A stretch of 32,000 bases of DNA from Breznakia blatticola (GTDB taxonomy: Bacteria; Bacillota_I; Bacilli_A; Erysipelotrichales; Erysipelotrichaceae): assembly GCF_004365815.1 (NCBI RefSeq), contig NZ_SODD01000025.1, forward strand, positions 1,383-33,382, read 5' to 3'. How positions within the stretch are numbered: position 1 is the first letter of the stretch; every line of letters begins with the position of its first letter. A model generated the notes under the pieces. It saw only the letters and a list, made by a program, of their open reading frames with translations. It ran no database searches and was not told the DNA's origin. The position numbers and the translations under genes were made by a program. Shown here in pieces: positions 11,327 to 27,478 of this stretch.

Positions 11327-11356
11327 TTACATATAATACTTTGTAGTTTAGAATTG

Positions 11357-14098
11357 TTATTTTGATTTTCTTTTATTACGTAAAACAACCATTCCACCTG
11401 TCAATGCGATCAATCCAAGGTAAATAAACCATTCAACACTTGTCGAATCACCTGTATCTACGACTTTATTTGCATCTTTTACTTGCCCATTGAAATCTGG
11501 TGCAATGGATGGATTTGAAGGATTGCTTGGCGAATCTGTATTTGTCTCATTATTAACTGGTGGAAGTACAATTTTTTCCCACTTCGCAACTAATGTTACA
11601 TCATTATAAATTAAGGTATCAAAATCCCAGCTTTGTCCATCAGAAAGTTCCCATCCTTTAAAAATATATCCATCTCTTTCTGGGTCTAACGGTTTTGTTG
11701 ATGTATTTCCATATTCAACTTTTTGTGAATCAATTGGATCACTAGTTCCACCATTCAAATCAAAGATGATGTCAAACTTCGCTATTTCCCAAATATATGT
11801 ATCTGGAATACTTCCATCGTAGCTATCCATAAATGTTGTACTATCTGCATATGTATTTCCAGTATGAATACCAATCCAACGACCTGTGTATTTTCCACTT
11901 GTCGTATCAATTAATGGCAATGCAGCACTCTGATCAAGTATGGCATTAGGTCCCAATTGTATAGAACTAAGAAGTGTACAATTGTAAAACATTTGCACAA
12001 AATCCGTTACATTTGATGTATCCCAATTTTCTAAATTAATTTTCTCTAAACTTTGATTTTCATAGAACATACGTTGCATATTTACTACATTACTTGTATC
12101 CCAATTGGATAAGTCTAATTCCGTAATTGAAGGGCATAGATCAAACATATTTGACATATTAGTCACATTTGCTGTATTCCAATTCGCAATTTCTAAACCA
12201 TCCAATACGGCGCAGTCATGGAACATAAATGACATATCCATAACACTTGATGTATCCCAGTCTTTCATATCTAGTGTTTCAAGTGCACTACATCCTAAGA
12301 ACATACTTCCCATGGTTGTAACATTTTCTACATTCCAATCGCTAACATCTAGGTTATTGATATTCTTACTTCTAAAAAACATTAAGTCCATTGCTGTAAC
12401 ACTTCCAGTATCCCAATTACTTACATCAAGTGATTCCAAGCTTTCGCAAGCATAAAACATACTCGACATATCTGTAACATTTTCTACGTTCCAATCTGAA
12501 ACATTAAGATCTGTTAATACTTTACAATTAACAAACATCCCACTCATATCTGTTACAACACCAACATTCCAATCATCGACTGATAATCCAGTGAGTTTGT
12601 TGCAACCATAGAACATTTGTTTCATGCTTTCCACTTTTTCTGTATTCCATGTACTTACATCAAGGTTGTCTAAAATCGTACATCCATAAAACATGCTACG
12701 CATATTTTCTACAAGTCCGACATTCCATTCTTCAACATCTAACACCTCAAGATTCGCACATCCTGAAAACATACTACTCATGTCTTTTACTGCAGCTACA
12801 TTCCAAGTACTAACATCAACATCTGAAAGTTTCGTACATCCCGAGAACATAAATGCCATCGTATTTACATTCCCTACATTCCAATCACTTACAGCAATTT
12901 CTTCCAATTTCTTACAGTTCCAAAACATGTAACTCATATCTTGAATATTATGCACATCCCAATTATCAATTGTTAATGTTGTTAGTGCTTCACAATCTGT
13001 AAACATGCTTTTTGTTGATAATGTTTTTGATAAATCCCAACCTGAAAGATCAATGCTTGTTAATTTTGTACTACTTCTAAACATATTCTCTAGTGTTTTA
13101 ACACTTGATGTTTCCCAATCAGATAAATCTAAATTTTCTAATTTCGTACAATATCTAAACATGTTTTCCATTGTTTCAACTTTACGCACATCAAAAGATT
13201 CAACGTTAATTTCTTCCAGTGCAAAACATTGGTCAAACATGAATTTCATATCTTTAACTTCACCAGTATCCCAAGTATCTACCTTTAATTCAGTGATTAT
13301 TTTACATCCTTTAAACATTGATGACATATTTGTCACAGCACTTGTGTCCCAATCTTCTACATCAATTTCTGCAAGTACTGAACAACCATCAAACATTCCC
13401 ATCATTAAGGTTACATTTTCTGTATCCCATAATGATACATCGACATTTGTTAATGCAGAACATCCTTTAAACATGTATGACATATCTGTAAAAGTTGATG
13501 TGTTCCATGATGATACATCAATACTTGTTAGTGAACTACATCCCTCAAACATACTTTGCGCGTTAACTGGTCCTGAAAACGTAATCTTCTCTGCACCAAC
13601 CACAGTTTCTAAACTTGTGAATTTTTCAAACATACTTGCTGCATTTGTAATTGTCACTGGTTGTGCAAATGTAATCTTCTTAATTTGATTTTTGTGTTGA
13701 ACAAAGTTATTAGGATTTGCCCAATGTTCTCCAGTCAATACACCTTGTTGGTAACTTTTGTTTCCACATGTATTCGTTAGTGTACCACCTTCTAGCACGA
13801 GTTCTCCATCTGCATACAACGTCCAAGTTACACCCCACGTGTTTGTATCAACAACTACACGATCTGCTTGTGGCAAAATCTCTACAGTTTTTGCACTTGG
13901 TTTTGTCTCATCCTTAATTTCTGTTTGCTCATCTACACGCTTAACAACTTCATCTTCCTTATTAGCTGTTTCTTCGTTTACCTCATCAGTAGTTTGCTCA
14001 TTTGCATGTATTTCTTCTTTTGCTAGTACAATACCGTTTGATGAAACTACAATAATTCCAATCAACATCAAAATTACTATCTTTTTTAATTTATCCAT
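11357..14098 (-). CDS. BspA-family (DUF285-type) leucine-rich-repeat surface protein with a Listeria-Bacteroides (Flg_new) repeat and a C-terminal membrane/sorting anchor
   Basis: The protein has a signal peptide (MDKLKKIVILMLIGIIVVSSNGIVLA) and about 22 units of DVSxWNTSxVTxMxxMFxGCxxL. It also has a GYIFKGW Flg_new module, a Pro/Ser linker, and the tail VVDTGDSTSVEWFIYLGLIALTGGMVVLRNKRKSK. Confidence 0.88.
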   Translation of the reverse strand: MDKLKKIVILMLIGIIVVSSNGIVLAKEEIHANEQTTDEVNEETANKEDEVVKRVDEQTEIKDETKPSAKTVEILPQADRVVVDTNTWGVTWTLYADGELVLEGGTLTNTCGNKSYQQGVLTGEHWANPNNFVQHKNQIKKITFAQPVTITNAASMFEKFTSLETVVGAEKITFSGPVNAQSMFEGCSSLTSIDVSSWNTSTFTDMSYMFKGCSALTNVDVSLWDTENVTLMMGMFDGCSVLAEIDVEDWDTSAVTNMSSMFKGCKIITELKVDTWDTGEVKDMKFMFDQCFALEEINVESFDVRKVETMENMFRYCTKLENLDLSDWETSSVKTLENMFRSSTKLTSIDLSGWDLSKTLSTKSMFTDCEALTTLTIDNWDVHNIQDMSYMFWNCKKLEEIAVSDWNVGNVNTMAFMFSGCTKLSDVDVSTWNVAAVKDMSSMFSGCANLEVLDVEEWNVGLVENMRSMFYGCTILDNLDVSTWNTEKVESMKQMFYGCNKLTGLSVDDWNVGVVTDMSGMFVNCKVLTDLNVSDWNVENVTDMSSMFYACESLESLDVSNWDTGSVTAMDLMFFRSKNINNLDVSDWNVENVTTMGSMFLGCSALETLDMKDWDTSSVMDMSFMFHDCAVLDGLEIANWNTANVTNMSNMFDLCPSITELDLSNWDTSNVVNMQRMFYENQSLEKINLENWDTSNVTDFVQMFYNCTLLSSIQLGPNAILDQSAALPLIDTTSGKYTGRWIGIHTGNTYADSTTFMDSYDGSIPDTYIWEIAKFDIIFDLNGGTSDPIDSQKVEYGNTSTKPLDPERDGYIFKGWELSDGQSWDFDTLIYNDVTLVAKWEKIVLPPVNNETNTDSPSNPSNPSIAPDFNGQVKDANKVVDTGDSTSVEWFIYLGLIALTGGMVVLRNKRKSK
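11960..13680 (-). repeat. Tandem array of about 22 diverged 75-nt (25-aa) LRR coding repeats
   Basis: Periodic xMF-x-x-C-x-x-L ... W(D/N)(T/V) pattern in the translation. This periodicity also generates long spurious antisense ORFs in the track. Confidence 0.85.
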
Positions 14099-14128
14099 AC
14101 TTTTTCCTCTCTATAACACTTGCTATTT

Positions 14129-14160
14129 GTTAGATATTCAAAATACAAAATAGTTTGAAC
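14129..14160 (-). promoter_or_regulatory. ECF-type promoter candidate in front of the BspA-like gene
   Basis: Read on the minus strand: GTTCAAAC-N15-ATATCTAAC, ending about 30 nt before the ATG. The same 8+9 nt at the same spacing occur at 15513-15544. Confidence 0.55.
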
Positions 14161-15473
14161 TAAATTGTAAAACTGAATTCATTACAATGTTTTTTCATAT
14201 CACACAACATCACTTCAATTTTCTTGTCCTGATTTAGTGATACATACAACTCTTTTGTTAGTGGAACTTTGCTTCCATTTACAATCACATATGACAAATC
14301 ATAGTTAATGTCATATTCCGCTTCTTGAACGATGAAATATCCAACATCATCTTTTACTTTGATTCCCTTTATAACAGGAATTTTTTGATCAATATTATCT
14401 ACTTCAAAATATTGCTCATCATTTCCTACTTTCACATAATACCTTCCATTATCATTCGCATACATTTGAATATATTCATCAAATATTGTGTATGCACAGT
14501 TTTCATCTTGAAATGTAATTTGAACTGCATCAGTTACCTTTTCTTTTGTATAAATACGTATTTCAATTGGTCCGGCAATTGGTGACTGATCATACGCAAT
14601 CGATGCAATCGTATCCTCTCGATTTGAAACTTTGTATACTGGATGACTCGTAATTGACGGATATACATCATAAAGCAAATCATGATCTTGTAATATTCCA
14701 AAGGCTTGTGGAAATATCATCACTGCTGCAAGGAAAACCGTGAATAATACTCCACTTTTCTCACTTCTTATCATCGCATTCACAAAATCACGTATACTTC
14801 CATGTCGAATCGATTGCTCATTACTACCAATCGATGGATGTGTTTGCTCTTTTGCTTGATACCTATTTGTCATTTCTTGATACAACAATGGAATCCCTGT
14901 CACACTGAAGTATTTTCTAGGATGATATCCTTGATCTTTCAAATCCTTCGATACCTTCTTACGAATTTCATACAATCTACTTTTTACCTTTTTTGTGTCT
15001 ACATCCATTTCACTCGCAATTTCATCCATTGAAAATCCACCTAAGAATCGCAATTCTGCAGTTCTTTTATTGTTTTGATTCAACTTTGAAAATGACTGAA
15101 TGATTGCATCCATTAAGGAAGAACGCGTTAATTCATCAATTTGATTATCTTTTGCTTCTACTACCTCTTCGATTGCATTTTCATCATCTAACTGAATATA
15201 CTTATTTTGCTTATTTAATCTTGCATTACACTCATTTGTTGCAATCGTGAACATCCATGAATGAAATGCATCAAGTTTCTTTAATTGATGAATCTTCATT
15301 TGTACTTTAAGCATCACTTCCTGAACGACTTCCTCTGCTTCATGTGCATTTTTCAAAATTGAAAATGCATAATAATAAAGAGGTCCACGATAAAACTTAT
15401 AAATTTCATTTAATGCATTTGCATTTCCTTCTTGTAGTTCCTTTACATATGCATTAGATATTCGGCTTGCCAC
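14160..15473 (-). CDS. ECF-type sigma-70 family factor fused to a transmembrane helix and a ~176-aa extracytoplasmic domain
   Basis: aa 1-185 contain sigma region 2 (EAEEVVQEVMLKV...FHSWMFTIATNECNARL) and region 4 (RTAELRFLGGFSMDEIASEMDVDTKKVKSRLYEIRKK). A TM helix spans aa 241-261 (GVLFTVFLAAVMIFPQAFGIL), with basic residues on the N-terminal side. The C-terminal domain has no family I can recognise. GTG start. Confidence 0.8.
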   Translation of the reverse strand: MASRISNAYVKELQEGNANALNEIYKFYRGPLYYYAFSILKNAHEAEEVVQEVMLKVQMKIHQLKKLDAFHSWMFTIATNECNARLNKQNKYIQLDDENAIEEVVEAKDNQIDELTRSSLMDAIIQSFSKLNQNNKRTAELRFLGGFSMDEIASEMDVDTKKVKSRLYEIRKKVSKDLKDQGYHPRKYFSVTGIPLLYQEMTNRYQAKEQTHPSIGSNEQSIRHGSIRDFVNAMIRSEKSGVLFTVFLAAVMIFPQAFGILQDHDLLYDVYPSITSHPVYKVSNREDTIASIAYDQSPIAGPIEIRIYTKEKVTDAVQITFQDENCAYTIFDEYIQMYANDNGRYYVKVGNDEQYFEVDNIDQKIPVIKGIKVKDDVGYFIVQEAEYDINYDLSYVIVNGSKVPLTKELYVSLNQDKKIEVMLCDMKKHCNEFSFTI

Positions 15474-15872: not shown

Positions 15873-16073
15873 TTATGTATTATTTAAAAATGCTTCGATT
15901 TTTTCCTGCGTCGGAATTCCTGTTTGTGCACCCAAGTGCTCTGTTGATATCGATGCTCCTGCACTTGCAAATTGAATTGCTTCCTTCAACTTGATTCCTT
16001 TTGCTAATTGCATTGCAAGAATCCCATTAAATGTATCTCCAACAGCAATCAAAAATATTATAACAACCAACAA
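15873..16073 (-). pseudogene. 3' remnant of a ribokinase/PfkB-family sugar kinase (last ~57 codons only)
   Basis: AVGDTFNGILAMQLAKGIKLKEAIQFASAGASISTEHLGAQTGIPTQEKIEAFL matches the C-terminal GAGDxFxG anion-hole region of RbsK-type kinases. Upstream of ~16048 the frame is AT-rich non-homologous sequence. The remaining ~240 codons of the gene are absent. Confidence 0.7.
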
Positions 16074-16110: not shown

Positions 16111-16151
16111 AAAATTGCTAAAACCTTATGAATAAAGGGCTTAGCAATTTT
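16111..16151. terminator. Bidirectional hairpin terminator downstream of the HAD gene
   Basis: Arms AAAATTGCTAA (16111-16121) / TTAGCAATTTT (16141-16151) with inner CCTT/AAGG pairs. T-runs follow on both strands. Confidence 0.6.
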
Positions 16152-16233: not shown

Positions 16234-16896
16234 TCAATCGGATTCATTCATCTTTAAAACTATACGCACTGCATCAAACATTGTGTCCACAATAATATCT
16301 GCATCACTTTGATCAATATCAAAATTATAGTCCTTGATTGCAATAACATACATTCCTGCTCGTTTTCCTGCTTGTATTCCATAATAAGAATCCTCAATTA
16401 CAACACATTCATCTGGATTTATCCCAAAGTGTTTAGCACATGTGATGTATATTTCAGGATCCGGTTTACTGTTTTCAAACATTTCACCAGAAATTATGTA
16501 ATCTAATTTTGGTATTAACCCACAGTTCTTCAAGTTATACTTTAGTGGTTCTAATCGTGATGAACTTGCTACAGCTACATGAATATTATGATCTTTAAGC
16601 ATTTGAAACGATCTTGGCACATCTTCAAACATAATCTCTTTGTAATCTAATCGACGTACAACTTCACGAAAATCCCATAGTTTTTGTTGGAATTCTTCAT
16701 ATGTGTATGGTGGGTTTGCTTTATCATATATAACTCTCCACAAATCCATTTGCACACTTGAGCCAATTAGATTACGTAAATCTTGAGGATCATACGATAA
16801 CCCTAATTGCTTTACAAATTCTTCATTTAATCCGTTCACTAAGACTTCTGAGTTGACAATTACACCATCAAAGTCACTAAATACCGCTTTTATCAT
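16234..16896 (-). CDS. HAD-IA family sugar-phosphate phosphatase / beta-phosphoglucomutase-like hydrolase
   Basis: MIKAVFSDFDGVIVNSE carries the DxDG nucleophile motif, and the protein has the GxxAGxxxG-type C-terminal motifs (EDSYYGIQAGKRAGM). Confidence 0.8.
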   Translation of the reverse strand: MIKAVFSDFDGVIVNSEVLVNGLNEEFVKQLGLSYDPQDLRNLIGSSVQMDLWRVIYDKANPPYTYEEFQQKLWDFREVVRRLDYKEIMFEDVPRSFQMLKDHNIHVAVASSSRLEPLKYNLKNCGLIPKLDYIISGEMFENSKPDPEIYITCAKHFGINPDECVVIEDSYYGIQAGKRAGMYVIAIKDYNFDIDQSDADIIVDTMFDAVRIVLKMNESD

Positions 16897-16957
16897 AGTT
16901 ATATTATCTTCCTTCCTCATATATAAAGCAAGGTAGAGATTGCTCTCTACCTAATGT

Positions 16958-17848
16958 TTATTTTATATTTCGAATGTGTCCTTTACTTGTTTCTAGTAAA
17001 GCTTCTGCTTTAGCTACATCACAGTTATGTAAGATCATCACTATTGCAACTTTCACTCTGTTCCCACTTGCTTCTATTGCTTGTTCGATTACTTCATCAC
17101 TTGCATCTGTAACTTCTTTAATGATATTTTTCCCTCTTTGTACAAGTTTTTTATTTGATAGCTTTACATCCACCATCAGGTTTTCATAAGCTTTTCCTAC
17201 TCCAACCATCGCTCCTGTTGAAATCATATTCAAGACTAGTTTTTGAGTTGTTCCTGCTTTTAAGCGTGTGGATCCAGTCAATACTTCTGGTCCAGGAACT
17301 GCTTCAATTGCCAGTTTTGCAACTGCTCCAATTTCACTATTTTTGTTGCATGCAATTGCTACTGTATGACATCCAATTTCATTTGCATATTCTAATGCTT
17401 CAATTACATATGGTGTTCTTCCACTTGCTGCCAATCCAACAACTAAATCATTTTCATTTGCATCAATACGCTTTAAATCTTCAACACCTTCACTTAGTGA
17501 ATCTTCACTTCCTTCTTTTGCTTTTACGAATGCACTATCTCCTCCGGCAATCAAACCGACAACTGTATCATATGATACCCCGAAGGTTGGTGGACATTCT
17601 ACTGCATCTAGTACACCTAAACGACCTGAAGTACCTGCACCCATATAAATGATTCGTCCACCATTACTTAATGCTTCAATTCCCCAAGTAATTGCTTGTG
17701 CAATTTCAGGAAGTACTTTTTCAATAGCTTCAGGAACTTTTTTATCTTCATCATTCATTTTCTTGGCAAATTCAAGAGGTGATAAAATATCTAAATCCAT
17801 TGTATTTGGATTTCTTTGTTCCGTTGTTAATTTCGTTAAATCTATCAT
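16958..17848 (-). CDS. murQ: N-acetylmuramic acid 6-phosphate etherase, copy 1
   Basis: TEQRNPNTMDLD, GRIIYMGAGTSGRLGVLDAVECPPTFG and LTGSTRLKAGTAQK-type motifs. 296 aa SIS-domain protein. Confidence 0.92.
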   Translation of the reverse strand: MIDLTKLTTEQRNPNTMDLDILSPLEFAKKMNDEDKKVPEAIEKVLPEIAQAITWGIEALSNGGRIIYMGAGTSGRLGVLDAVECPPTFGVSYDTVVGLIAGGDSAFVKAKEGSEDSLSEGVEDLKRIDANENDLVVGLAASGRTPYVIEALEYANEIGCHTVAIACNKNSEIGAVAKLAIEAVPGPEVLTGSTRLKAGTTQKLVLNMISTGAMVGVGKAYENLMVDVKLSNKKLVQRGKNIIKEVTDASDEVIEQAIEASGNRVKVAIVMILHNCDVAKAEALLETSKGHIRNIK

Positions 17849-17858
17849 GTTTTCTCCT
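16958..17858. repeat. Dispersed direct repeat A (murQ CDS plus RBS), partner at 21703-22603
   Basis: Collinear with copy B at a constant offset of 4745 nt with no indels. My hand alignment finds about 39 mismatches in 901 nt. Confidence 0.85.
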
Positions 17859-17880
17859 TGTTCAAAGTAGTACTCTTTTA

Positions 17881-18579
17881 TTACTTATTAGAATACTTTG
17901 CTACTTCATTGGCGAAACGTTTTGTCAGTATTTCTGGTCGTGTAATACTTGTTCCAACAACGACTGCGTATGCACCATTTTCTAATGCCAATCGTGCTTC
18001 ATTAGGTGTCTCGATTTTACCTTCTGCAATGACTGGTGTATCTGTAAACTCGGAAATCTCCTTAATCAATTTCAAATTAACGGATGTGATTTCTGAACTC
18101 TCATCAGTATATCCCGATAGCGTTGTGGATAAAAAATCAAAGCCTAATGTATCTGCATATTTTGCTTCTTCAAGCGTTGATATTTCTCCCATAATTAGTA
18201 CTTCTGGATAATTTTCTTTAATCTTTTGTACAATACTCTCAATGTTCTCCCCATTCGGTCTAGCCCTTTTTGTTGCATCTAAAGCAATAATATCAATGCC
18301 AATCTCTAAGATTTCTTTCGCACTTTCATAGGTTGGTGTGATATAGACATCACAATCATCACGAAACTGTTTATTTATTCCAATCAAAGGTAAATCAACT
18401 TTTTCTTTGATTGCTAGTAAATTGTCTTTACCAGTAGCACGAATTCCAACAGCTCCACCTTCTTTTGCAGCACTAGCAAATGCTGCCATAATTGATGAAC
18501 CATACATTGCCCATCCAACGCGAGCTTGACATGAAACAATCAACCCACCTTTGATTTCTTCCATTACCTGCTTTTTCAT
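17881..18579 (-). CDS. nanE: Putative N-acetylmannosamine-6-phosphate 2-epimerase
   Basis: 232 aa with the IKGGLIVSCQA signature and NanE-like TIM-barrel length. The ATG immediately follows the upstream TAA stop. Confidence 0.82.
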   Translation of the reverse strand: MKKQVMEEIKGGLIVSCQARVGWAMYGSSIMAAFASAAKEGGAVGIRATGKDNLLAIKEKVDLPLIGINKQFRDDCDVYITPTYESAKEILEIGIDIIALDATKRARPNGENIESIVQKIKENYPEVLIMGEISTLEEAKYADTLGFDFLSTTLSGYTDESSEITSVNLKLIKEISEFTDTPVIAEGKIETPNEARLALENGAYAVVVGTSITRPEILTKRFANEVAKYSNK

Positions 18580-20172
18580 TTAGAACATCCCAATCATCTT
18601 TCCAACAATACCAAGAATAAAACTTACGATAACACAAATATACATTCCTTTTTTGTTTTTCATTAATAATTGATAGAATCCTAAAGTTATTAACAATGGA
18701 ATTAGACAAGGTAAAATTGAATCTAGCAATTCTTGAACGATAATTTCTTTTTCACCGAATGTCCAAACATAAGCGACTGGTGCTTTAACAAATCCAACGA
18801 TCATTGCACCAACAACCATCATTCCGACAATTGTTGCTCCTTGTACAAACTTGTCAATAAGGTTTCCTTCTTTCATACGAGCAACGATGCTTGTTCCTAG
18901 AGCATATCCGTGCTTGATAAATAACCATCTTGATCCAACATTTAAGATTAAGTTTGGAACAATAAAGATGATTGGTCCAAGAATACTTCCATCCAATGCT
19001 AATCCAGCTCCAATTGCAGCAAATACTGTCATGAATGTTGCCTTAAATACAGAATCTCCAATTCCTGATAAAGGTCCCATTAGTGCAGCTTTTGTTGATG
19101 AAATAGCTTCACCTGTAATTGGCTTACCTAAAGCTCTTTGTTCTTCAAGAGCAAGAGATACTCCCATTACCGCATTTCCAGTATATGGATGACAGTTAAA
19201 GAATTCATTGTGACGAGTTAGTGCTTCTGTTAAATCTTCTTTATTTGGATATAGTTTTTTCAGTGCTGGAATCATTGCAAATGCAAACCCTAAACTACAG
19301 TAACGTTCGTAGTTGATACTAGTCATTGAGAAGAATGAACGGAAGAATGTTGAACGTAATTCTTTTTTAGTAAGAATGTGTTCAAGTTCTTCTGGTGCAC
19401 TTGAGTCACCATCATCATCTAAGTCAAATTCATCTTTTGGTTCGTTTTTCTTTTCAAAGATAAACATCGCAGCTGCAATACCAAACCCAAGTAAAGATAC
19501 AGGAAGAACCGCTAAATTCACATATGTTGCTAAAACAAATCCAATTAAGAAGAATGGCCAGTATTTTTTCATATCCATCATTTTAAGTAACATTGCCATT
19601 CCTACTGCTGGCAAGATACCAGAAGCAACTTTCATACCATCAGTGACAATTGCTGGCAAACTAGCAACTATGTTGTTTACAAAGTCACTACCGAAATACA
19701 CCGCTAAAAATGATGGAATAAAGAATACGATAAAGAATATTGGTATCCCTGCTAAATGAGCTAATTCTACTTTACGAATTTCACCGTTTGCTAAGTATTT
19801 ATCTGCACGGTGCATAATAATAATATTTATATTCCATGCAAACATAATCAATAATTGTGCTAGCATCCCAATTGGTAATGCTAGTGTAATCCCAACTTCT
19901 GGATTTCCTCCATTTTGAATTGCGAATACAGTTGATAGCATACCGGCAATTTGTGCATTTGGTGGTACACTTCCTCCAATTGGTAGGATTCCCATATACA
20001 TAAGTTCTACACTACCACCTACAATAAGTCCGGTTTGAACATCTCCTAAAATCAAACCAATCACTGGTCCTGCAAAGATTGGACGTGAGATCATCCAATA
20101 TCCATAACCATAGTTTTCAGTTATTACAATTGCGATAAAAACACTCAGTAATAACGCGCTTACTAATGACAT
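18580..20172 (-). CDS. Mannose-family PTS fused IIC-IID membrane component
   Basis: aa 1 to ~250 are ManY-like IIC (GPVIGLILGD...ELMYMG...PPN). An acidic linker (DEFDLDDDGDSS) follows. aa ~270-530 are ManZ-like IID (LTKKELRSTFFRSFF..INYERY...HNEFFNCHPY). Confidence 0.85.
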   Translation of the reverse strand: MSLVSALLLSVFIAIVITENYGYGYWMISRPIFAGPVIGLILGDVQTGLIVGGSVELMYMGILPIGGSVPPNAQIAGMLSTVFAIQNGGNPEVGITLALPIGMLAQLLIMFAWNINIIIMHRADKYLANGEIRKVELAHLAGIPIFFIVFFIPSFLAVYFGSDFVNNIVASLPAIVTDGMKVASGILPAVGMAMLLKMMDMKKYWPFFLIGFVLATYVNLAVLPVSLLGFGIAAAMFIFEKKNEPKDEFDLDDDGDSSAPEELEHILTKKELRSTFFRSFFSMTSINYERYCSLGFAFAMIPALKKLYPNKEDLTEALTRHNEFFNCHPYTGNAVMGVSLALEEQRALGKPITGEAISSTKAALMGPLSGIGDSVFKATFMTVFAAIGAGLALDGSILGPIIFIVPNLILNVGSRWLFIKHGYALGTSIVARMKEGNLIDKFVQGATIVGMMVVGAMIVGFVKAPVAYVWTFGEKEIIVQELLDSILPCLIPLLITLGFYQLLMKNKKGMYICVIVSFILGIVGKMIGMF

Positions 20173-20190
20173 ATATTTCCCTCAATCTTT

Positions 20191-20655
20191 CTAAATTAAT
20201 TTCATTAAATCTTCACTTGTGTCTGAAGGTGTAGTTCGTACATCAAGTGCAACACCATTTGCATCTAACTTTTTGAAGTCTTCAATCATTGCATCATCCA
20301 CATAAACAGTCTTTGATAGTTGACGACGACCTTCTTTAAAGTAGATACCTCCAACATTAATAGAGTCAAATGTAACTCCATTGTTCATCATTTTTACAAG
20401 AACTCCTGGTTCTTTTACAACGATGAAGAAACGTTTATTTCCGTTTCGTTCTAAAAATTTTACTGCTTTTTCATCATCAACAACTAAGCATTTCAAACCT
20501 GCGGGGCAAGCCATTTCCAATAATGATTTTTGAAAATCATCTTTAGACACTTCGTTATCAACGACCATTACTACGTCTACTTTATACGCAGTTGTCCAAG
20601 CAAAAGCAACTTGGCCATGAATTAATCTTTCATCAATTCTGGTAATTGTAATCAT
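20191..20655 (-). CDS. Mannose/sorbose-family PTS IIB component
   Basis: MITITRIDERLIHGQV carries the phospho-His motif of the IIB-Man family. 154 aa, so there is no fused IIA domain. Confidence 0.88.
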   Translation of the reverse strand: MITITRIDERLIHGQVAFAWTTAYKVDVVMVVDNEVSKDDFQKSLLEMACPAGLKCLVVDDEKAVKFLERNGNKRFFIVVKEPGVLVKMMNNGVTFDSINVGGIYFKEGRRQLSKTVYVDDAMIEDFKKLDANGVALDVRTTPSDTSEDLMKLI

Positions 20656-20685
20656 TTGGTATCCTCCATTTTCTTTTACACCTTC

Positions 20686-20713
20686 ATCATAGACTAATGA
20701 AACTATATGTCAA
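20686..20713 (-). promoter_or_regulatory. Sigma-A promoter of the Man-PTS/nanE/murQ/HAD operon
   Basis: Read on the minus strand: TTGACA (20708-20713), 16 nt, TATGAT (20686-20691). The spacer contains an ATGAAAC half-site (20697-20703). Confidence 0.5.
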
Positions 20714-20732
20714 TAAAGTAAGCGTATAACGA

Positions 20733-20761
20733 AACAAAGTTTCATATAATGAAACTTTGTT
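20733..20761. promoter_or_regulatory. 29-bp perfect palindrome, candidate operator
   Basis: AACAAAGTTTCAT-ATA-ATGAAACTTTGTT has 13-nt arms with no mismatch. It overlaps the murR stop codon and sits 19 nt upstream of the -35 at 20708-20713. No T-run follows on the minus strand. Confidence 0.6.
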
Positions 20762-21596
20762 AATTGGTGATTCGCGTTTTATTTACTTTCTCAATTGCTT
20801 GATCATAATCTAATTGTGATACTAATGCATATAAAATATCAACGATATACAATTGCGTAATACGTGATGCCATCGCTCCACTTCTAAACAGTGTTTCTCT
20901 ACTACTCACAGCAATCGATACATCTGCAATTGAAGCTAATGTATTCGAAGTACTGCTCGTAATACATATAACATAACATCCGTTTTTTTGACACTCATTT
21001 GCAATGTCAATCATCTCCTTTGTTTCTCCACTATAAGAAAAGACCATTGCAACATGTTTCGAAGAAGAGTTTAAAGCTTGTACCCACTGTCTATCATTTA
21101 GTTGATAACAAGCAACATTTTTTCCAATTCTCATAAATTTATACGTTGCATCAAGTGCAACTACATTGGATGCTCCAATGCCATAAAAATCTACTACTTG
21201 TGCTTTATGAATCCGATTAGCAGCCTCCACAAGACTATCTTCATTTAGGATTATTCTTGTTTCCTCAATAGAGTGCACATCAATATTCGTAATCTTATCA
21301 ATGACTGTTTTTGGACTATCATCTCGACTTACAGTTGTTGTATCCAATACATTTAAATGTACATTCTCAAACCCCTGTAGTTCAGAAGCAATCATTATCT
21401 TAAACTGATTAAAGCCTTTTGCACCAACTCGTTTACATAAACGAACAACCGTTGCAGTTGATGTAAATGTTTCTTTTGCAACTTCATAAATTGTCATATC
21501 AACAATTCGCTTTGGATCCTTTAAAATAAAATCTCTAATTTGTTTTTCTGCTTCTGGAAGGTTTCGATAATCTCTTAATTTTATTAGCACGCTCAT
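20760..21596 (-). CDS. murR: MurR/RpiR-family transcriptional regulator (HTH_6 plus SIS domain)
   Basis: MSVLIKLRDYRNLPEAEKQIRDFIL...TATVVRLCKRVGAKGFNQFK is an RpiR-type HTH. The C-terminal part is a SIS domain. GAGGT lies 5 nt before the ATG at 21596. Confidence 0.85.
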   Translation of the reverse strand: MSVLIKLRDYRNLPEAEKQIRDFILKDPKRIVDMTIYEVAKETFTSTATVVRLCKRVGAKGFNQFKIMIASELQGFENVHLNVLDTTTVSRDDSPKTVIDKITNIDVHSIEETRIILNEDSLVEAANRIHKAQVVDFYGIGASNVVALDATYKFMRIGKNVACYQLNDRQWVQALNSSSKHVAMVFSYSGETKEMIDIANECQKNGCYVICITSSTSNTLASIADVSIAVSSRETLFRSGAMASRITQLYIVDILYALVSQLDYDQAIEKVNKTRITN

Positions 21597-21615: not shown

Positions 21616-21644
21616 ACTATAGCAAAGTGCTAAAAATTAAGCAA
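21616..21644 (-). promoter_or_regulatory. Candidate murR promoter
   Basis: Read on the minus strand: TTGCTT (21639-21644), 17 nt, TATAGT (21616-21621). The -10 is immediately followed by GTGAAAC, which resembles the ATGAAAC half-site of the palindrome at 20733-20761. Confidence 0.4.
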
Positions 21645-21645
21645 A

Positions 21646-21690
21646 CACAAAAAAACTTGGTATAAAAGCGACTCTCTTCTACCAAGTTTT
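21646..21690 (-). terminator. Intrinsic terminator after murQ copy 2
   Basis: Stem AAACTTGGTA (21653-21662) / TACCAAGTTT (21680-21689). On the minus strand it is followed by TTTTTTT. Confidence 0.65.
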
Positions 21691-21702: not shown

Positions 21703-22593
21703 CTATTTAATGTTTCGAATGTGTCCTTTACTTGTTTCTAATAAAGCTTCTGCTTTAGCTACATCGCAGTTATGTAAAATCATCACTATTGCAACTTTCA
21801 CTCTATTTCCACTTGCTTCTATTGCTTGTTCGATTACTTCATCACTTGCATCTGTAACTTCTTTAATGATATTTTTTCCTCTTTGTACAAGTTTTTTATT
21901 TGATAGTTTTACATCCACCATCAGATTTTCATAAGCTTTTCCTACTCCAACCATCGCTCCTGTTGATAGCATATTTAGGATTAGTTTTTGGGTCGTCCCT
22001 GCTTTTAAGCGTGTGGATCCAGTTAATACTTCTGGTCCAGGAACTGCTTCGATTGCCAGTTTTGCGACTGCTCCAATTTCACTATTCTTGTTACATGCAA
22101 TTGCTACTGTATGACATCCAATTTCATTTGCATATCCTAATGCTTCTATTACATATGGTGTTCTTCCGCTTGCTGCCAATCCAACAATTAAATCATTTTC
22201 ATTTGCATCAATACGCTTTAAATCTTCAACACCTTCACTTAATGAATCTTCACTTCCTTCTTTTGCTTTTACGAATGCACTATCTCCTCCAGCAATCAAA
22301 CCGACAACTGTATCATATGACACACCAAATGTTGGTGGACATTCTACTGCATCTAGTACACCTAGACGTCCAGAAGTTCCTGCACCCATATAAATGATTC
22401 GTCCACCATTACTTAATGCTTCAATTCCCCAAGTAATTGCTTGTGCAATTTCAGGAAGTACTTTTTCAATAGCTTCGGGAACTTTTTTATCTTCATCATT
22501 CATTTTCTTGGCAAATTCAAGAGGTGATAAAATATCTAAATCCATTGTATTTGGATTTCTTTGTTCCGTTGTTAATTTCGTTAAATCTATCAT
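21703..22593 (-). CDS. murQ: N-acetylmuramic acid 6-phosphate etherase, copy 2
   Basis: It differs from copy 1 at 4 of 296 residues (V/I, E/G, V/I, I/L). AGGAGAAAAC lies before the ATG at 22593. The longer start in the track (22644) would overlap the upstream gene. Confidence 0.92.
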   Translation of the reverse strand: MIDLTKLTTEQRNPNTMDLDILSPLEFAKKMNDEDKKVPEAIEKVLPEIAQAITWGIEALSNGGRIIYMGAGTSGRLGVLDAVECPPTFGVSYDTVVGLIAGGDSAFVKAKEGSEDSLSEGVEDLKRIDANENDLIVGLAASGRTPYVIEALGYANEIGCHTVAIACNKNSEIGAVAKLAIEAVPGPEVLTGSTRLKAGTTQKLILNMLSTGAMVGVGKAYENLMVDVKLSNKKLVQRGKNIIKEVTDASDEVIEQAIEASGNRVKVAIVMILHNCDVAKAEALLETSKGHIRNIK

Positions 22594-22603
22594 GTTTTCT
22601 CCT
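21703..22603. repeat. Dispersed direct repeat B (murQ CDS plus RBS), partner at 16958-17858
   Basis: See repeat A. Similarity stops abruptly just beyond the RBS on one side and at the stop codon on the other. Confidence 0.85.
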
Positions 22604-23642
22604 ATTTTTCTACGAACATCAGTTTTGTTCCAGGTGTAATACACTCTAATATACTAAGGTAATCTGGATGAACATTACCAATAACATTCACTCTTTCATC
22701 AGCAGTGAAATCCTTTTTTGTTATTTGAATTTCTCCACTGTATCGCAAGTATTTCTTGTTATCTATAGTAATACTTCCATAATCGCGAGATATCGTATTT
22801 ACTGCTTCTATAATCGCTCCTTGGCTAGCAAATTCACGACTTTCTTGAAGGCGAATCAGTTTACTAGGAGAATCAATCCGATTGGTAAATACTTGATTTA
22901 TAAATGGCTTTAATAGCTCATGAACATTCACTACAGGAATTCGAATTACTTGATCATCTAAGGTATCTGACAGCAATTGATAATCCATAAAGTTCATACC
23001 TATATCACCAACGAATACGTATTCTGCATAATGATTCCACAAAATTTCTAATGCAGCTACATAACCATTCATATCACGATGTTTTTCTAGTGTTGGTAAC
23101 CCTTCAAATATAGGTCCTCTATATTTCTCACCTGGTATAAATGCAATGCTTTTTACTTCGTGTTTTACTAATGTTTCATGCATATCTTTCAGTTGTTTTA
23201 CATCCAATCCTGTATCTTTACGGGGATAGAAATTATGCATTGCATATACGCGTCCTTTTGGAAGTTTTTCGATTAATTTCACATCTATCGTTGATGCATT
23301 AACTACTAACGGTACTTCTTTGGCAATTGCAATTGTTTCCTCATCACTAAACCCATAATCCAAACGAACAAGATCAATATCTAATAATTGAATTAAACTA
23401 TGTACATTTGATAAGCCAAACTTCGTTAACGTTCTTTTTGAAATATCTGCAATAATTTTTGTATCCTGTTTTTTTAGTAATCGAAACATTTCCTTTACAT
23501 CTTCAACATATGCATCATCATATTCTTCAGCTATATGTAATGATGTAAAAACCATATTACCTTGTAAGGGCAACGTTTGAAGTTGCCCTTTTTGTTCTCT
23601 AAATGTTGTTACGTAGTATGCAAAACCAATGGTCTTAAGCAC
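22602..23642 (-). CDS. mupG: DUF871 / MupG-family 6-phospho-N-acetylmuramidase
   Basis: 346 aa. The N-terminus (IGFAYYVTTF...NMVFTSLHIAEE) resembles the DUF871 TIM-barrel family. The gene is sandwiched between murP and murQ, as in the Staphylococcus aureus locus. The GTG start overlaps the murP stop (GTGCTTAA). Confidence 0.72.
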   Translation of the reverse strand: MLKTIGFAYYVTTFREQKGQLQTLPLQGNMVFTSLHIAEEYDDAYVEDVKEMFRLLKKQDTKIIADISKRTLTKFGLSNVHSLIQLLDIDLVRLDYGFSDEETIAIAKEVPLVVNASTIDVKLIEKLPKGRVYAMHNFYPRKDTGLDVKQLKDMHETLVKHEVKSIAFIPGEKYRGPIFEGLPTLEKHRDMNGYVAALEILWNHYAEYVFVGDIGMNFMDYQLLSDTLDDQVIRIPVVNVHELLKPFINQVFTNRIDSPSKLIRLQESREFASQGAIIEAVNTISRDYGSITIDNKKYLRYSGEIQITKKDFTADERVNVIGNVHPDYLSILECITPGTKLMFVEK

Positions 23643-25074
23643 GTTCTACTTCTTCCTTCGAAACAAAGAACCAAGTTACAATAAACCCACCGATGTATGC
23701 AACAATTAGTCCAATGAAGTAGTAAAGCATTCCCATTGCACCATTGCTTCCACCTGTCATTAATGGAATTGCTACCATTCCTGAAGGTCCCCATGCAGTT
23801 GCCATTACTTTGGTTAACATTACAAATGCTCCACCAAATCCAGCTCCAATTCCAGCTGTAATAAATGGTTTACCCATTGGAAGAGTTACCCCATAGATTA
23901 ATGGTTCACCAACTCCAAGGATACCTGCTGGTAATGCACCTACAATAACTTCACGTAGACGTTGATTGTTTGCTTGTTTTGCTTTAATGTAAATCGCGAT
24001 TGCTGCTCCAACTTGACCAGCTCCTGCCATTGCTAATACTGGGAATAATGTAACTCCACCTAACTTTTCTAATTGAATTGCATAGATTGGAATTAATCCA
24101 TGGTGAAGTCCTAATAACACCATTGGTAAGAACAATGCAGATAATACAAATCCTGAGATTACTTGTACTACTGGGTTACTTGAGTTAATAAGGATATTTA
24201 ATGCACTAATCAAGAGATCAGATAAGAAACCTGCGACTGGCATAATCGCAAATACAAAGATCACTCCTGTAATTACGATTGCACAAATTGGTGTTACGAT
24301 TAAATCTAAGATTTCTGGTACGACTTTACGTAATCCTTTTTCTACTTTTGCTAAAATCCAAACACCGAAGATAACTCCGATAATTCCACCTTTACCTGTT
24401 GTCAGAATTGATTCTAAAGGTACATCTACATTATACCAACCAAAGAATGTTGATAATGTGATGATTCCAGGTGCAATTGAGATTGCCCCAATCATTCCTC
24501 CTAACGCTTCTGTTGCTCCAAATTGTTTTGCAGCATTTACACCAGTGAAAATAGCAAAGTATGATAGGAATCCAGATCCTAACAATGAAAGTGTTTGTTG
24601 GATTAAGAACCATACACTTGTTTCATTAACAGTAATTACTCCTGATGTTCCAAGTTGTCCAATTAAACTTGCAATACCATTTAATAATCCAGCAGCAATA
24701 ATTGCTGGAATTAGTGGAATAAAGATATTTCCAATTGTACGTAATCCTTGTTTTAATGGTGAGTCTTTTTGATTTGCTTTTACATCCGCTTTGTTTTCTT
24801 CCCAACTTGGGTCGATTTCTCCAGCGTGTACTCCCATTTCATTGATCAGAATATCAGCAACTCTTTTTGCTTTTCCTGGTCCTAGTACAATTTGCATCGT
24901 TGCATCTTCAACAACACCCATTACACCTGATGTTGTCTTCAACTCTTCTAATTGTACTTTACTCATGTCTTTAATTTTCACACGTAAACGTGTCATACAG
25001 TTTGCAGCAGTAAGAATATTTTCTTTACCACCTAACAGCTCTAATAATTTTGCTGCTAATTCTTGATTATTCAT
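23635..25074 (-). CDS. murP: Glucose-family PTS EIIBC, N-acetylmuramic acid (or MurNAc-GlcNAc) specific by context
   Basis: The N-terminal EIIB domain has NCMTRLRV (phospho-Cys), followed by an EIIC domain of about 10 TM helices. The position next to mupG and murQ supports the specificity. Confidence 0.8.
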   Translation of the reverse strand: MNNQELAAKLLELLGGKENILTAANCMTRLRVKIKDMSKVQLEELKTTSGVMGVVEDATMQIVLGPGKAKRVADILINEMGVHAGEIDPSWEENKADVKANQKDSPLKQGLRTIGNIFIPLIPAIIAAGLLNGIASLIGQLGTSGVITVNETSVWFLIQQTLSLLGSGFLSYFAIFTGVNAAKQFGATEALGGMIGAISIAPGIITLSTFFGWYNVDVPLESILTTGKGGIIGVIFGVWILAKVEKGLRKVVPEILDLIVTPICAIVITGVIFVFAIMPVAGFLSDLLISALNILINSSNPVVQVISGFVLSALFLPMVLLGLHHGLIPIYAIQLEKLGGVTLFPVLAMAGAGQVGAAIAIYIKAKQANNQRLREVIVGALPAGILGVGEPLIYGVTLPMGKPFITAGIGAGFGGAFVMLTKVMATAWGPSGMVAIPLMTGGSNGAMGMLYYFIGLIVAYIGGFIVTWFFVSKEEVERA

Positions 25075-25126: not shown

Positions 25127-27478
25127 TTAATAACCCTTGTTATTCAATTTTCTTTTGTTCAAAATATACAACCCTGCACTCAATCCAACAATTAGTAATC
25201 CGGCAAAGAACATAATGTTTGTTTGATCTCCTGTTCCAATTGATGGATCGTTTTTATTTGTATTTGATGACCCTGGTTTTGATGGTTGATCCGTATTCGG
25301 TTTGTTTGATGAACCATCTTTAACAATGTTAGTTACACGTACATTAACTGATCCTTTGTGTCCGTTTTTGTAAACTAGGTTCACAGTTTCTTCAGCGTTT
25401 TCTGTGTAAACTTTTTCATATTGTTCAACAACACTACGTCCTGTTGACTCCACTTTTGTCCAACCTTCAATATCATTTACTTTTTTACTAACAGAGATAG
25501 TTGCTTTTACAGGTCCTTTAGTTTCTCCGTTTGTATCGTACGCTACTGTAGCAGTTGGTTCTTTTGCATCAACAACTGTAATGTATTTTTTCATTTTCAC
25601 GTCATGTAAGCCACTATTATCATTGTAAAGAGATACATAGTAATCACCCTCTTCACTCGCATTGAAATAGTATGATGCCCCTTTTGCATGCCAGTCAGCA
25701 GGTTCTAATAAATCACTTGATCCTTCTGGACCATCATAATCAGTAGGTACTTCTGGAGCTGGATCCCCACAATCTACTCTTGTGACCTTAAGACTACGAT
25801 AATCAACTTTTGTAATTTTCTTATTTGATAGTGGACTTAATAAGTCAACATCAACTTTCACTGTTGGATTTGCTTCAAAATCATTGACGATAACTTCTTT
25901 TTCTTCACCAATATTTGGTAATGAAGATACATATGTGTCAAAGCCAAATGCATCGCGGTAGATTCTTTCAGCAACCATACGGTATGTACTTGCTCCTGTT
26001 CCAGAATTCACAAATGAATTTGGATATTCAGGACCTACAACTGGGTTGTGTGGTCTATTTCTCATGTATACAACAACAATGTTGTTTTCTGGATCTGCGA
26101 ATGCGACTGGACCAGACCATCCTTGATGTCCAAATGTTGAATAGTCTGCATAGTATGAGAAATATGTTGGCCAGTTTGTTGATCCCCATTGGTAATCTAC
26201 ATCATTTGTATACCATCCAAGTGCATATGTAGAATTCGTGTATCCACCATCATTAATAATGTCGTTAGGTTCTAAGAACATATCTACTGTTTCTTTATCA
26301 AATAATGTAACACCATTGTAAGTTCCGTTATTTAGCATCAATTGATACAAGATAGCAACATCATGTGGTGTTGAGAAAATTCCAGCATGACCAGCAACTC
26401 CTGCTAGTGTGTAGTATGCTTTTTCATCATGTACTTCTCCACGTAAAGTATATGTTCTCATTCCAGTAAATGCATATTCATTTGCATTATGCCCATCTAC
26501 TGTACGATATCCATCTCTTGAGTTTCCGTTGATTTCAGTAGCTGCAATATCTTCTTGAGTGAACCCTTTTTGTAGTGGATTATACATTGTATGCGTCAAA
26601 CCTAATGGTGCATAAATTTCATTTTCAACATATTGATCTTGTGGCATTCCAGTAATCGATTCAATAATCAATCCAAGTAACATGTAATCTACATCACTGT
26701 AAGCAATTGCCGTTCCAGGCATGGTAGTAATTGGTGTCTTACATATTGCTTCAAGTGCTTTTGTTCGATCACTTGGATCTGTTTGTGGTTCGATATAGAG
26801 CGTATCATACGCTGAACCAGCAGTTGCAAATCCCATATAGTCTGCAGCAGCCTGACTCTTTAAATAATTATCATTGTGATATTGTGGATCTGGCGCTTGA
26901 CCTGCTTCATGATGTAGTAACATCTTTACCGTAATCAAATCCTTATGTTGAAGTGATTGTGCTTCAGGTTTTAACAAGCTTGTAACCTCATCATAATCAC
27001 GGTATTCAGGAATATATGTACTTACAGTTGCATCCAAGTCTAACTTACCTTCATACACTAGTTTTTGTAGTGCCAAATTAGTAGATAGCATTTTTGAAAC
27101 AGATGCCATATCCCACATAGTGTTTTCATCAACTGCATCCCAATCACTTTCATCTAGTAAAACAGATTGGTGATCATTAAATATATCGGTTCCTTCTTTG
27201 TACTTTGCTTCATAACCAAAGTAATCTTCATATTGAACCTTACCATCTTTTAAAACCATTACAGCAGATCCAGTATGACCATTGTCAATTAAGTTTTGTA
27301 CTCCCTCTTTAACTGAACTGAAATCATAGTCACTTGCTTCATCAGTGATGATGTTTGGTACAACATCATGACCTTTCATACCCTCTCCAACTCTACTAGC
27401 CAATACTGGTGCACTTGCTATTGTCCCTACATATGCAATTGATAGTGCTCCTAATATCACTTTACGAAAAACATTCAC
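25127..27478 (-). CDS. Secreted, C-terminally anchored serine hydrolase of the beta-lactamase/PBP4* (COG1680) family
   Basis: GAGGAGGG lies 7 nt before the GTG at 27478. The protein has a signal peptide (NVFRKVILGALSIAYVGTIASAPVLA), an SxxK motif (ASVSKM), YSD and HQG motifs, and a C-terminal beta-rich region of ~200 aa. The tail is PSIGTGDQTNIMFFAGLLIVGLSAGLYILNKRK. Confidence 0.78.
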   Translation of the reverse strand: MNVFRKVILGALSIAYVGTIASAPVLASRVGEGMKGHDVVPNIITDEASDYDFSSVKEGVQNLIDNGHTGSAVMVLKDGKVQYEDYFGYEAKYKEGTDIFNDHQSVLLDESDWDAVDENTMWDMASVSKMLSTNLALQKLVYEGKLDLDATVSTYIPEYRDYDEVTSLLKPEAQSLQHKDLITVKMLLHHEAGQAPDPQYHNDNYLKSQAAADYMGFATAGSAYDTLYIEPQTDPSDRTKALEAICKTPITTMPGTAIAYSDVDYMLLGLIIESITGMPQDQYVENEIYAPLGLTHTMYNPLQKGFTQEDIAATEINGNSRDGYRTVDGHNANEYAFTGMRTYTLRGEVHDEKAYYTLAGVAGHAGIFSTPHDVAILYQLMLNNGTYNGVTLFDKETVDMFLEPNDIINDGGYTNSTYALGWYTNDVDYQWGSTNWPTYFSYYADYSTFGHQGWSGPVAFADPENNIVVVYMRNRPHNPVVGPEYPNSFVNSGTGASTYRMVAERIYRDAFGFDTYVSSLPNIGEEKEVIVNDFEANPTVKVDVDLLSPLSNKKITKVDYRSLKVTRVDCGDPAPEVPTDYDGPEGSSDLLEPADWHAKGASYYFNASEEGDYYVSLYNDNSGLHDVKMKKYITVVDAKEPTATVAYDTNGETKGPVKATISVSKKVNDIEGWTKVESTGRSVVEQYEKVYTENAEETVNLVYKNGHKGSVNVRVTNIVKDGSSNKPNTDQPSKPGSSNTNKNDPSIGTGDQTNIMFFAGLLIVGLSAGLYILNKRKLNNKGY

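Follow-up and report, generated by a model that had tools for sequence, protein, structure and literature searches.

A mannose-family phosphotransferase operon with NanE and MurQ in Breznakia blatticola and its possible role in scavenging N-acetylmannosamine and N-acetylmuramic acid

Described amino-sugar systems and the Breznakia operon

Bacterial uptake of N-acetylmuramic acid (MurNAc) is attributed to MurP, a glucose-family transporter of the phosphotransferase system (PTS), to permeases feeding kinases or, in Tannerella, to MurT. N-acetylmannosamine (ManNAc) is the signature sugar of the linkage units of teichoic acids and secondary cell-wall polymers and is also a product of sialic-acid cleavage. 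We analysed a stretch of 32,000 nucleotides from Breznakia blatticola (contig NZ_SODD01000025.1; hereafter the window, to which all positions refer) with an operon that encodes a mannose (Man)-family PTS transporter, the ManNAc 6-phosphate (ManNAc-6-P) 2-epimerase NanE and the MurNAc 6-phosphate (MurNAc-6-P) etherase MurQ. We tentatively propose, with slightly less than even confidence, that this RpiR-controlled PTS takes up ManNAc and MurNAc separately, that NanE and MurQ funnel each of them to N-acetylglucosamine 6-phosphate (GlcNAc-6-P), and that the IIA component is supplied in trans. The operon probably scavenges known sugars and not an exotic new ether sugar.

The described MurNAc units murR/murQ-murP-yfeW of Escherichia coli, murQRP-amiE-nagZ of Bacillus subtilis and mupG-murQ-murP-murR of Staphylococcus aureus resemble the operon and its relatives (hereafter the module) in uniting an RpiR-type regulator, MurQ and a PTS, often in a divergent regulator/operon layout, and in having GlcNAc-6-P as product. 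A PBP4B-like serine hydrolase partner also occurs in one variant of the module (L092) and in the murP operon that neighbours the module in the window. In contrast to these units, the module has a four-domain Man-family PTS (IIA, IIB, fused IIC-IID) instead of the glucose-family MurP IIBC, NanE is an obligatory extra component, and the regulator scores 106 bits with the MurR equivalog model NF012026 (cut-off 408). The window transporter has Man-family domains only, without Pfam EIIB-Glc or EIIC-Glc domains; its different fold places it outside the MurP family.

The Man-family PTS ManXYZ of E. coli delivers ManNAc-6-P, from which NanE makes GlcNAc-6-P (PMC10667646), but ManXYZ is a general mannose PTS unlinked to nanE, whereas the module PTS is dedicated, shares an operon with nanE, has a fused IIC-IID and is accompanied by MurQ. 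The lmo2795-nanE operon of Listeria monocytogenes likewise combines RpiR, PTS genes, a HAD gene and NanE in one ManNAc operon (PMC10667646). It differs in its separate EIIA and EIIBC, which are dispensable for growth on ManNAc, in its ROK protein and oxidoreductase, and in having no MurQ. We take the Listeria EIIA and EIIBC to be of the mannitol/fructose family. The aga/gam cluster of E. coli is a further Man-family amino-sugar PTS in which one transporter (AgaBCD) borrows its IIA, AgaF serving both Man-family transporters. It handles N-acetylgalactosamine and galactosamine with the enzymes AgaA, AgaS, AgaZ and AgaY, and its shared IIA lies within the cluster, whereas here a shared IIA would lie outside the 32-kb window.

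By analogy, the module may combine the workings of the murR/murQP divergon with those of the ManXYZ–NanE route. A preliminary description of the operon had called its gene combination a candidate undescribed route, and we likewise found no description of the cluster in the searchable full-text literature, with subscription-only papers and curated subsystem databases outside its reach; a preprint on Hungatella nanAKE does not mention it.

Operon structure and conservation of the module

The operon consists of five closely packed minus-strand open reading frames (ORFs; 16234–20655), identified with Pfam and NCBIfam as IIB-Man, fused IIC-IID (IICD), NanE, MurQ and a HAD-IA hydrolase. The stop codon of IICD meets the start codon of NanE without a gap (18580/18579), and the remaining intergenic gaps measure 18, 32 and 37 nt. 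The operon is preceded by a sigma-70-type promoter (20713–20686, minus strand; TTGACA, 16 nt, TATGAT) that matches the consensus at 11 of 12 positions, ranks among the best sites of the region, and is kept with one substitution in the closest relative, the Erysipelotrichaceae bacterium MTC7; promoter-like sites as a class are not enriched in the region (50 found, 65 expected). ORF coordinates and Pfam/NCBIfam matches thus bear out the five genes, their positions and identities and the TAA-ATG abutment as given in the preliminary description, and its promoter is confirmed by the consensus count. Between murQ and the HAD gene lies a GC-containing hairpin of 9 bp (16931–16952, minus strand; -13.5 kcal/mol, z = -3.7), possibly a partial terminator or mRNA-stabilising element, and an intrinsic terminator formed by a hairpin and a U-run follows the operon (16111–16151, minus strand; -16.7 kcal/mol, z = -3.4). 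Rfam gave no match in the window.

The PTS unit is larger than first described and includes a gene for an RpiR/MurR-family regulator with HTH_6 (PF01418) and SIS (PF01380) domains (20760–21596, minus strand; 278 amino acids from the ATG at 21596). The ORF list starts this gene at a GTG at 21617; MTC7 shares the start at 21596, and also the promoter of this gene. We assign the regulator to the PTS unit because a terminator (~21640–21680) after the first murQ copy separates it from the murP operon, because its own promoter is conserved, and because RpiR flanks the PTS in most of the related loci.

With aligned fused IICD proteins as query, one genome per species was scanned, which yielded 44 loci at ≥60% identity; at least 114 full-length fused IICD relatives exist at ≥57% identity. 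The 44 loci derive from Erysipelotrichaceae, Clostridium, Lachnospiraceae, Oscillospiraceae, Bacillaceae (Peribacillus, Oceanobacillus, Brevibacillus), Enterococcus, Tetragenococcus, Lacticaseibacillus and Olsenella. IIB-IICD-NanE is present in all of them (44/44, allowing for contig ends), with NanE directly downstream of IICD in every locus. RpiR was found in 41/44, IIA-Man (PF03610) in 33/44 and MurQ in 31/44 loci, and the HAD gene, the window itself aside, in one (1/44; MTC7, L004). More distant Man-PTS loci (28–43% identity) are without NanE and without MurQ, and no IICD orthologue above 60% identity was found on plasmids.

Gene order varies with lineage. IIA and MurQ are co-transcribed and divergent from RpiR-IIB-IICD-NanE in Lachnospiraceae; Clostridium and Solobacterium have the order RpiR-IIB-IICD-NanE-MurQ-IIA, Oceanobacillus and Brevibacillus the order MurQ-IIA-IIB-IICD-NanE-RpiR, and the Peribacillus loci have no MurQ nearby. 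In 13 loci MurQ lies inside PTS transcription units, either between PTS genes or on the IIA transcript (in front of IIA-IIB in Bacillaceae), which speaks for our proposal. A survey of how widely the combination is conserved had been suggested in the preliminary description; Man-PTS, NanE and MurQ recur together in dozens of species and in at least four gene orders, which is no chance adjacency. Neither a glycosidase nor NagA or NagB is conserved in the flanks of the 44 loci. The flanking families that are conserved (response regulator, fructose PTS, MATE transporter, aminotransferase, agmatinase, permease, GDH and LysR regulator) were judged unrelated to the module. At four loci from Oceanobacillus and a metagenome-assembled genome (MAG) of Caproiciproducens (L037, L042, L046, L030), a fructose-type PTS (IIA, IIB, IIC) and a PatB/MalY-like aminotransferase stand immediately upstream of MurQ-IIA-IIB-IICD-NanE.

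By sequence, the module has no dedicated enzymes other than an epimerase for ManNAc-6-P and, in most lineages, an etherase for MurNAc-6-P, both of them canonical, and ManNAc would be its invariant and MurNAc its frequent second substrate. Precedents for the ManNAc branch are the import of ManNAc through ManXYZ in E. coli, which needs NanE, and the requirement of the Listeria lmo2795-nanE operon for growth on ManNAc (PMC10667646). Both precedents also fit a PTS for ManNAc only, in which MurQ would be co-located and co-regulated to act on MurNAc-6-P from MurP, a MurNAc kinase or AnmK. Its adjacency to IICD in 44/44 loci sets NanE apart from MurQ, which is nearby in 31 only and missing from Peribacillus-type loci, and the candidate operator is NanR-like. 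We nevertheless regard a ManNAc-only transporter as unlikely: in those 13 loci, across four architectures, MurQ stands among the PTS genes or on the transcript of IIA, an arrangement that makes little sense unless substrate flow is shared, a second, selected murQ is kept in the Man-PTS operon of the window although one already accompanies murP, and the L092 variant adds a PBP4B-like hydrolase.

The converse, a PTS for MurNAc only that would be a Man-family analogue of MurP, with NanE clearing internal ManNAc-6-P or balancing the GlcNAc-6-P and ManNAc-6-P pools, seems to us quite improbable. The module layout does mirror the murR / murQ-murP divergon of E. coli with the Man-PTS in the place of MurP (PMC5061867), most loci other than the window have no MurP within 10 kb, and the PBP4B-like gene of L092 would fit a MurNAc transporter as well. 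NanE, however, is the most tightly coupled gene of the module, abutting or nearly abutting IICD in every locus, and would have nothing to do in MurNAc catabolism, where MurQ already makes GlcNAc-6-P; the 13 loci in which no MurQ is nearby also count against this reading. An IIBC gene next to the module in Oceanobacillus, Lacticaseibacillus and Tetragenococcus was considered as MurP and rejected, as it is of the beta-glucoside type (412 vs 157 bits).

Transporter, enzymes and regulator

The IIB protein (20191–20655, minus strand; 154 amino acids; PF03830, 156 bits) consists of the IIB domain only and carries the phospho-His motif RIDERLIHGQ with His12. The fused IICD (18580–20172, minus strand; 530 amino acids) combines the IIC component EII-Sor (PF03609, residues 4–234) with the IID component EIID-AGA (PF03613, residues 267–530), as expected of Man-family Enzymes II (TC 4.A.6), and its IIC half best matches the AgaW model (216 bits). 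IICD is 98% identical at the protein level to its MTC7 orthologue. Codon differences from MTC7 are 188 synonymous and 12 non-synonymous in IICD and 26 synonymous and 4 non-synonymous in IIB; because synonymous differences so far exceed non-synonymous ones, the transporter is under strong purifying selection despite the absent local IIA.

No IIA-Man was detected in the six frames of the window by tblastn with 31 IIA sequences or by a hidden Markov model built from them (best E = 0.12), as the preliminary description had stated for operon and window. Its label of an IIA-less system does not hold for the module as such, since three quarters of the orthologous loci (33/44) carry IIA-Man, often co-transcribed with murQ; the comparison of loci indicates that the absence is a local loss, mostly in Erysipelotrichaceae. 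IIA-Man is missing from the window and from the loci of MTC7, Breznakia, VE202-08, Anaerorhabdus, Dielma, Amedibacillus, Laedolimicola (L017), Lacticaseibacillus (L040) and L034, and also from L018 and L032, which are both on short contigs. Erysipelothrix and Solobacterium retain it, and in an uncultured Erysipelotrichaceae MAG (L006) the sole IIA-Man is next to a second Man-type PTS and ~9.5 kb downstream of IICD. The slot that IIA has in the Clostridium/Solobacterium-type order is taken by the HAD gene in the window and in MTC7.

The simplest account of this gap would be that another Man-family system supplies IIA-Man in trans. That the transporter is instead decaying or silent, the PTS being non-functional without IIA-Man so that only the enzymes matter, has in our view a very slim chance of being true. 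Such decay would fit the lack of IIA-Man from the window and from several related Erysipelotrichaceae loci, but all ORFs are intact, the phospho-His motif is present, IIB and IICD are under the purifying selection described above, and promoter and operator are conserved. Sharing of IIA among Man-family systems also has a precedent in AgaF of E. coli. Cross-talk between PTS is documented in B. subtilis (PMC6148471). Genes for EIIA-Glc lie near several of the loci without IIA-Man and were considered as substitute donors. They were rejected because EIIA-Glc belongs to a neighbouring BglG/beta-glucoside IIBC system in L037 and L040 and, in MTC7 and the window, is a general PTS gene located with ptsI. 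The EIIA-Glc of the window (Crr-like; 28815–29312, minus strand; PF00358; TIGR00830, 140 bits) is likely the phosphoryl donor for the MurP IIBC and not for IIB-Man.

NanE (17881–18579, minus strand; 232 amino acids; PF04131, 202 bits; NF002231, 277 bits, cut-off 189) is 49% identical to the characterised NanE of Clostridium perfringens. Gln14, Arg43, Lys66, Glu180 and Arg208 are invariant in 43/43 module NanEs, and position 126 is Glu in 27, including the window copy, and Asp in 16 of them, as expected of a canonical epimerase. In complexes of the S. aureus and C. perfringens enzymes, the catalytic Lys and Arg208 hydrogen-bond the C3-OH of ManNAc-6-P (PMC8482478). A 3-O-lactyl group would have to displace these contacts, which argues against a lactyl-ether substrate of NanE without proving the point. 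No nanA or nanK homologue of a sialic-acid cluster is among the annotated window genes, and no extra gene family is conserved in the 44 loci; this absence is a feature of the context and not a property of the NanE enzyme family.

The window encodes MurQ twice. The copy in the PTS operon (copy 2; 16958–17848, minus strand; 296 amino acids) scores 401 bits with TIGR00274 (cut-off 302) and 335 bits with the solved MurQ structure PDB 4s12; copy 1 (21703–22593, minus strand) is the last gene of the murP operon and is followed by the terminator at ~21640–21680. The two proteins are identical in 292 of 296 residues (99%). Their genes differ by 39 nucleotides, in 33 synonymous and 4 non-synonymous codons, so both copies are kept by selection and are the same enzyme; the etherase of the Man-PTS operon is therefore no diverged paralogue with a new substrate, and evidently each operon needs its own MurQ supply. 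The 96% DNA identity is limited to ribosome-binding site and coding sequence, with unrelated flanks, and the pair reflects a recent duplication or gene conversion. The ORF list gives copy 1 a GTG start at 22644 that overlaps mupG; the correct start is the ATG at 22593.

Module-linked MurQs are interspersed among MurP-linked ones in a neighbour-joining tree built without bootstrap. MurQ has therefore been recruited to the module several times and forms no module-specific subfamily, and the module MurQ appears to be an ordinary etherase. Among the 80 closest MurQ loci on metagenome contigs, ~27 have an adjacent MurP. One of the 80, on a fermentation-metagenome contig (L092), is a divergent form of the module (7142–13373 of that contig), with RpiR-MurQ-IIA-Man, a PBP4B-like serine hydrolase (346 amino acids), IIB, fused IICD (47% identical) and NanE. 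In E. coli the murQP operon has PBP4B/YfeW as its third gene (PMC5061867), and such a hydrolase within a Man-PTS operon ties the module to peptidoglycan.

These features of both enzymes bear on the idea of a single undescribed N-acetyl-hexosamine ether, such as manno-muramic acid, another isomeric muramic acid derived from a cell-wall polymer or a different lactyl-ether hexosamine, on which NanE and MurQ would act in sequence after uptake by the Man-PTS. Manno-muramic acid had been put forward in the preliminary description. In most lineages the PTS operon includes the genes of both enzymes, and both chemistries begin with C2 deprotonation of an open-chain 2-acetamido-aldose 6-phosphate, so that a combined route is chemically conceivable. 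For MurQ, this mechanism was reportedly worked out by Hadi et al. in 2008. We know of no abundant natural source of such a sugar, and a search of the literature accessible to us returned no paper on manno-muramic acid. The mechanism of NanE used in the comparison is that of PMC8482478. With Lys66 and Arg208, which bind the free C3-OH, kept in 43/43 module NanEs, a MurQ 99% identical to the MurP/MupG-linked copy, no MurQ subfamily specific to the module and no MurQ near it in 13 loci, a single ether substrate is highly improbable; were it real, it would mean a new natural sugar and new substrate ranges for NanE and MurQ. The preliminary description had also considered a mixed MurNAc/ManNAc input converging on GlcNAc-6-P. 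This survives in the form of two separate monosaccharides, which we favour over one glycan fragment given that the loci share no conserved glycosidase.

A candidate RpiR operator lies upstream of the PTS promoter (20730–20759, minus strand), where the palindrome CAAAGTTTCATTATATGAAACTTTG (20735–20759) overlaps a GAAA-N5-TTTC box (20730–20742). The palindrome starts directly 3' of the RpiR stop codon and can also fold as a hairpin there, and an extra GTTTCA half-site lies within the promoter spacer (20698–20703). TTTCA-N5-TGAAA occurs between RpiR and IIB in ~22 loci. A GAAA-N5-TTTC box is present within ~220 nt upstream of IIB in 24/42 loci, and in most of these it is 63–107 nt ahead of the IIB start; its background frequency is 0.12 per kb. 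We take this conserved element as the candidate operator. It resembles the proposed boxes of RpiR-type NanR regulators in C. perfringens and Streptococcus pneumoniae (PMC4509764), which weakly suggests a NanR-like regulator. At the position of the lactyl-binding Lys159 of MurR, the window regulator has Arg, as does the NanR of Vibrio vulnificus, and the conserved His171 is replaced by Asp.

In the route that we propose for ManNAc and MurNAc, phosphate would pass from phosphoenolpyruvate through Enzyme I and HPr to a IIA-Man encoded elsewhere in the genome, and from there through His12 of IIB to the sugar. The fused IIC-IID would translocate the sugar, which would be phosphorylated at O6, and would accept at least two monosaccharides. 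NanE would convert ManNAc-6-P to GlcNAc-6-P, MurQ would cleave MurNAc-6-P to GlcNAc-6-P and D-lactate, and GlcNAc-6-P would exit via NagA and NagB, encoded elsewhere. RpiR would act by binding GAAA-N5-TTTC / TTTCA-N5-TGAAA, both immediately ahead of the promoter and within it, its ligand presumably being one of the sugar 6-phosphates.

Several points weigh against this proposal. In 13 of the 44 loci MurQ was not seen within 10 kb, which in four cases reflects a short contig, so that MurNAc may be a secondary or lineage-dependent substrate. The substrates are predicted from the enzymes encoded beside the transporter, and we know of no Man-family PTS that carries MurNAc. One transporter would have to accept a neutral and a carboxylated sugar, which is plausible by analogy with the breadth of ManXYZ. 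An IIA donor was not found in the six frames of the window, and an attempt to read the effector of RpiR from the ligand residues of MurR and NanR gave no discrimination, the Arg being common to the V. vulnificus NanR. If the proposal is correct, the module would be a second PTS route for scavenging peptidoglycan sugars in dozens of Firmicutes, among them gut Lachnospiraceae, Clostridium, Erysipelotrichaceae, Bacillaceae, enterococci and lactobacilli, and the strict pairing with NanE suggests that ManNAc is collected by the same module. It may be a general salvage unit for cell-wall debris, relevant to necromass cross-feeding in gut and soil, and the window operon would be a case of a Man-family EII working without its own IIA. 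Such a module would be of interest to the fields of peptidoglycan recycling and PTS, and it would overturn nothing.

The HAD gene, the murP operon and the local context

The last gene of the operon (16234–16920, minus strand; 228 amino acids; PF13419) encodes a HAD-IA protein that resembles sugar-phosphate phosphatases and has the DxD motif FSDFDG; its best NCBIfam matches are beta-PGM/YqaB and HxpB, all below their cut-offs. The preliminary description had likened it to MupP, the HAD-family MurNAc-6-P phosphatase of Pseudomonas. MupP belongs to the AmgK/MurU salvage pathway, and the window protein shares with it the HAD superfamily fold and a place near MurNAc-6-P metabolism. This likeness was rejected: the protein scores 31 bits with the MupP model NF009696 (cut-off 359), is not conserved with the module, and is not accompanied by AmgK or MurU among the window genes scanned with Pfam and NCBIfam. 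Its listing as part of the operon does not make it a conserved component, as it was found only in the window and MTC7 among the 44 loci, and it is 66% identical to its MTC7 copy, vs 86–98% for the neighbouring genes. It would be a recent, lineage-specific accessory phosphatase, possibly a relief valve for amino-sugar-phosphate stress. The ManNAc operon of Listeria also has a HAD gene, whose deletion slows growth on ManNAc (PMC10667646).

Upstream of the PTS unit, about 3 kb away as the preliminary description had noted, lies a murP-like IIBC gene (23635–25074, minus strand; PF00367 and PF02378), whose best NCBIfam match is the MurP model NF007152 (336 bits, below the cut-off of 516). Its operon begins with a gene for a beta-lactamase-fold protein of 795 amino acids similar to PBP4B/YfeW (25127–27514, minus strand; PF00144; NF002968, 362 bits, cut-off 385) and continues after murP with mupG (22602–23642, minus strand; PF19200 and PF05913) and murQ copy 1. 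A promoter (27712–27684), a strong leader terminator (27655–27621) and a gene for a BglG/LicT-type antiterminator (27761–28615) lie upstream of this operon, as does the EIIA-Glc gene. Uptake of the MurNAc disaccharide therefore seems to be under antitermination here, and not under the control of MurR. We suggest a division of labour in which the PBP4B-like-murP-mupG-murQ operon would take MurNAc-GlcNAc and the Man-PTS the monosaccharides, which would explain the separate murQ in each operon. Handling of MurNAc-GlcNAc by MurP and MupG in S. aureus was reportedly shown by Kluj et al. in 2018. The mupG operon of S. aureus is described in PMC5061867.

The corresponding gene order in MTC7 is PFK, EIIA-Glc, RpiR, IIB, IICD, NanE, MurQ, HAD and Enzyme I, which places the ancestral module between crr and ptsI, two general PTS genes. 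Compared with MTC7, the window contains two additional blocks. The first comprises bglG, the PBP4B-like gene, murP, mupG and murQ, and is inserted between EIIA-Glc and RpiR; the whole murP block is absent from this position in MTC7. The second lies between HAD and Enzyme I and comprises a DUF285/leucine-rich-repeat (LRR) surface protein, an ECF sigma fusion and a pfkB remnant. Its larger part (11357–15473) encodes a DUF285/BspA-LRR/Listeria-Bacteroides-repeat surface protein of 913 amino acids and an ECF-sigma fusion of 437 amino acids; the remnant beside it (15873–16073, minus strand; 66 amino acids) matches only the C-terminal 46 positions of the pfkB profile and is a gene fragment. Enzyme I (ptsI; 9474–11219, minus strand; TIGR01417, 761 bits) lacks a ptsH next to it, and a search of the window for an HPr motif found none; in MTC7 ptsI follows directly after HAD, at a distance of 114 nt.

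Further along the window, the gene for pyruvate formate-lyase is split (2820–5083, minus strand). An ORF of 668 amino acids (3077–5083) ends at profile position 664 of 744, and the glycyl-radical domain (RVSGYAV) is encoded 23 nt downstream by a separate ORF of 77 amino acids with its own ATG (2820–3053). The split could be real, a pseudogene or a sequencing error, and the activase gene (5582–6337) is intact.

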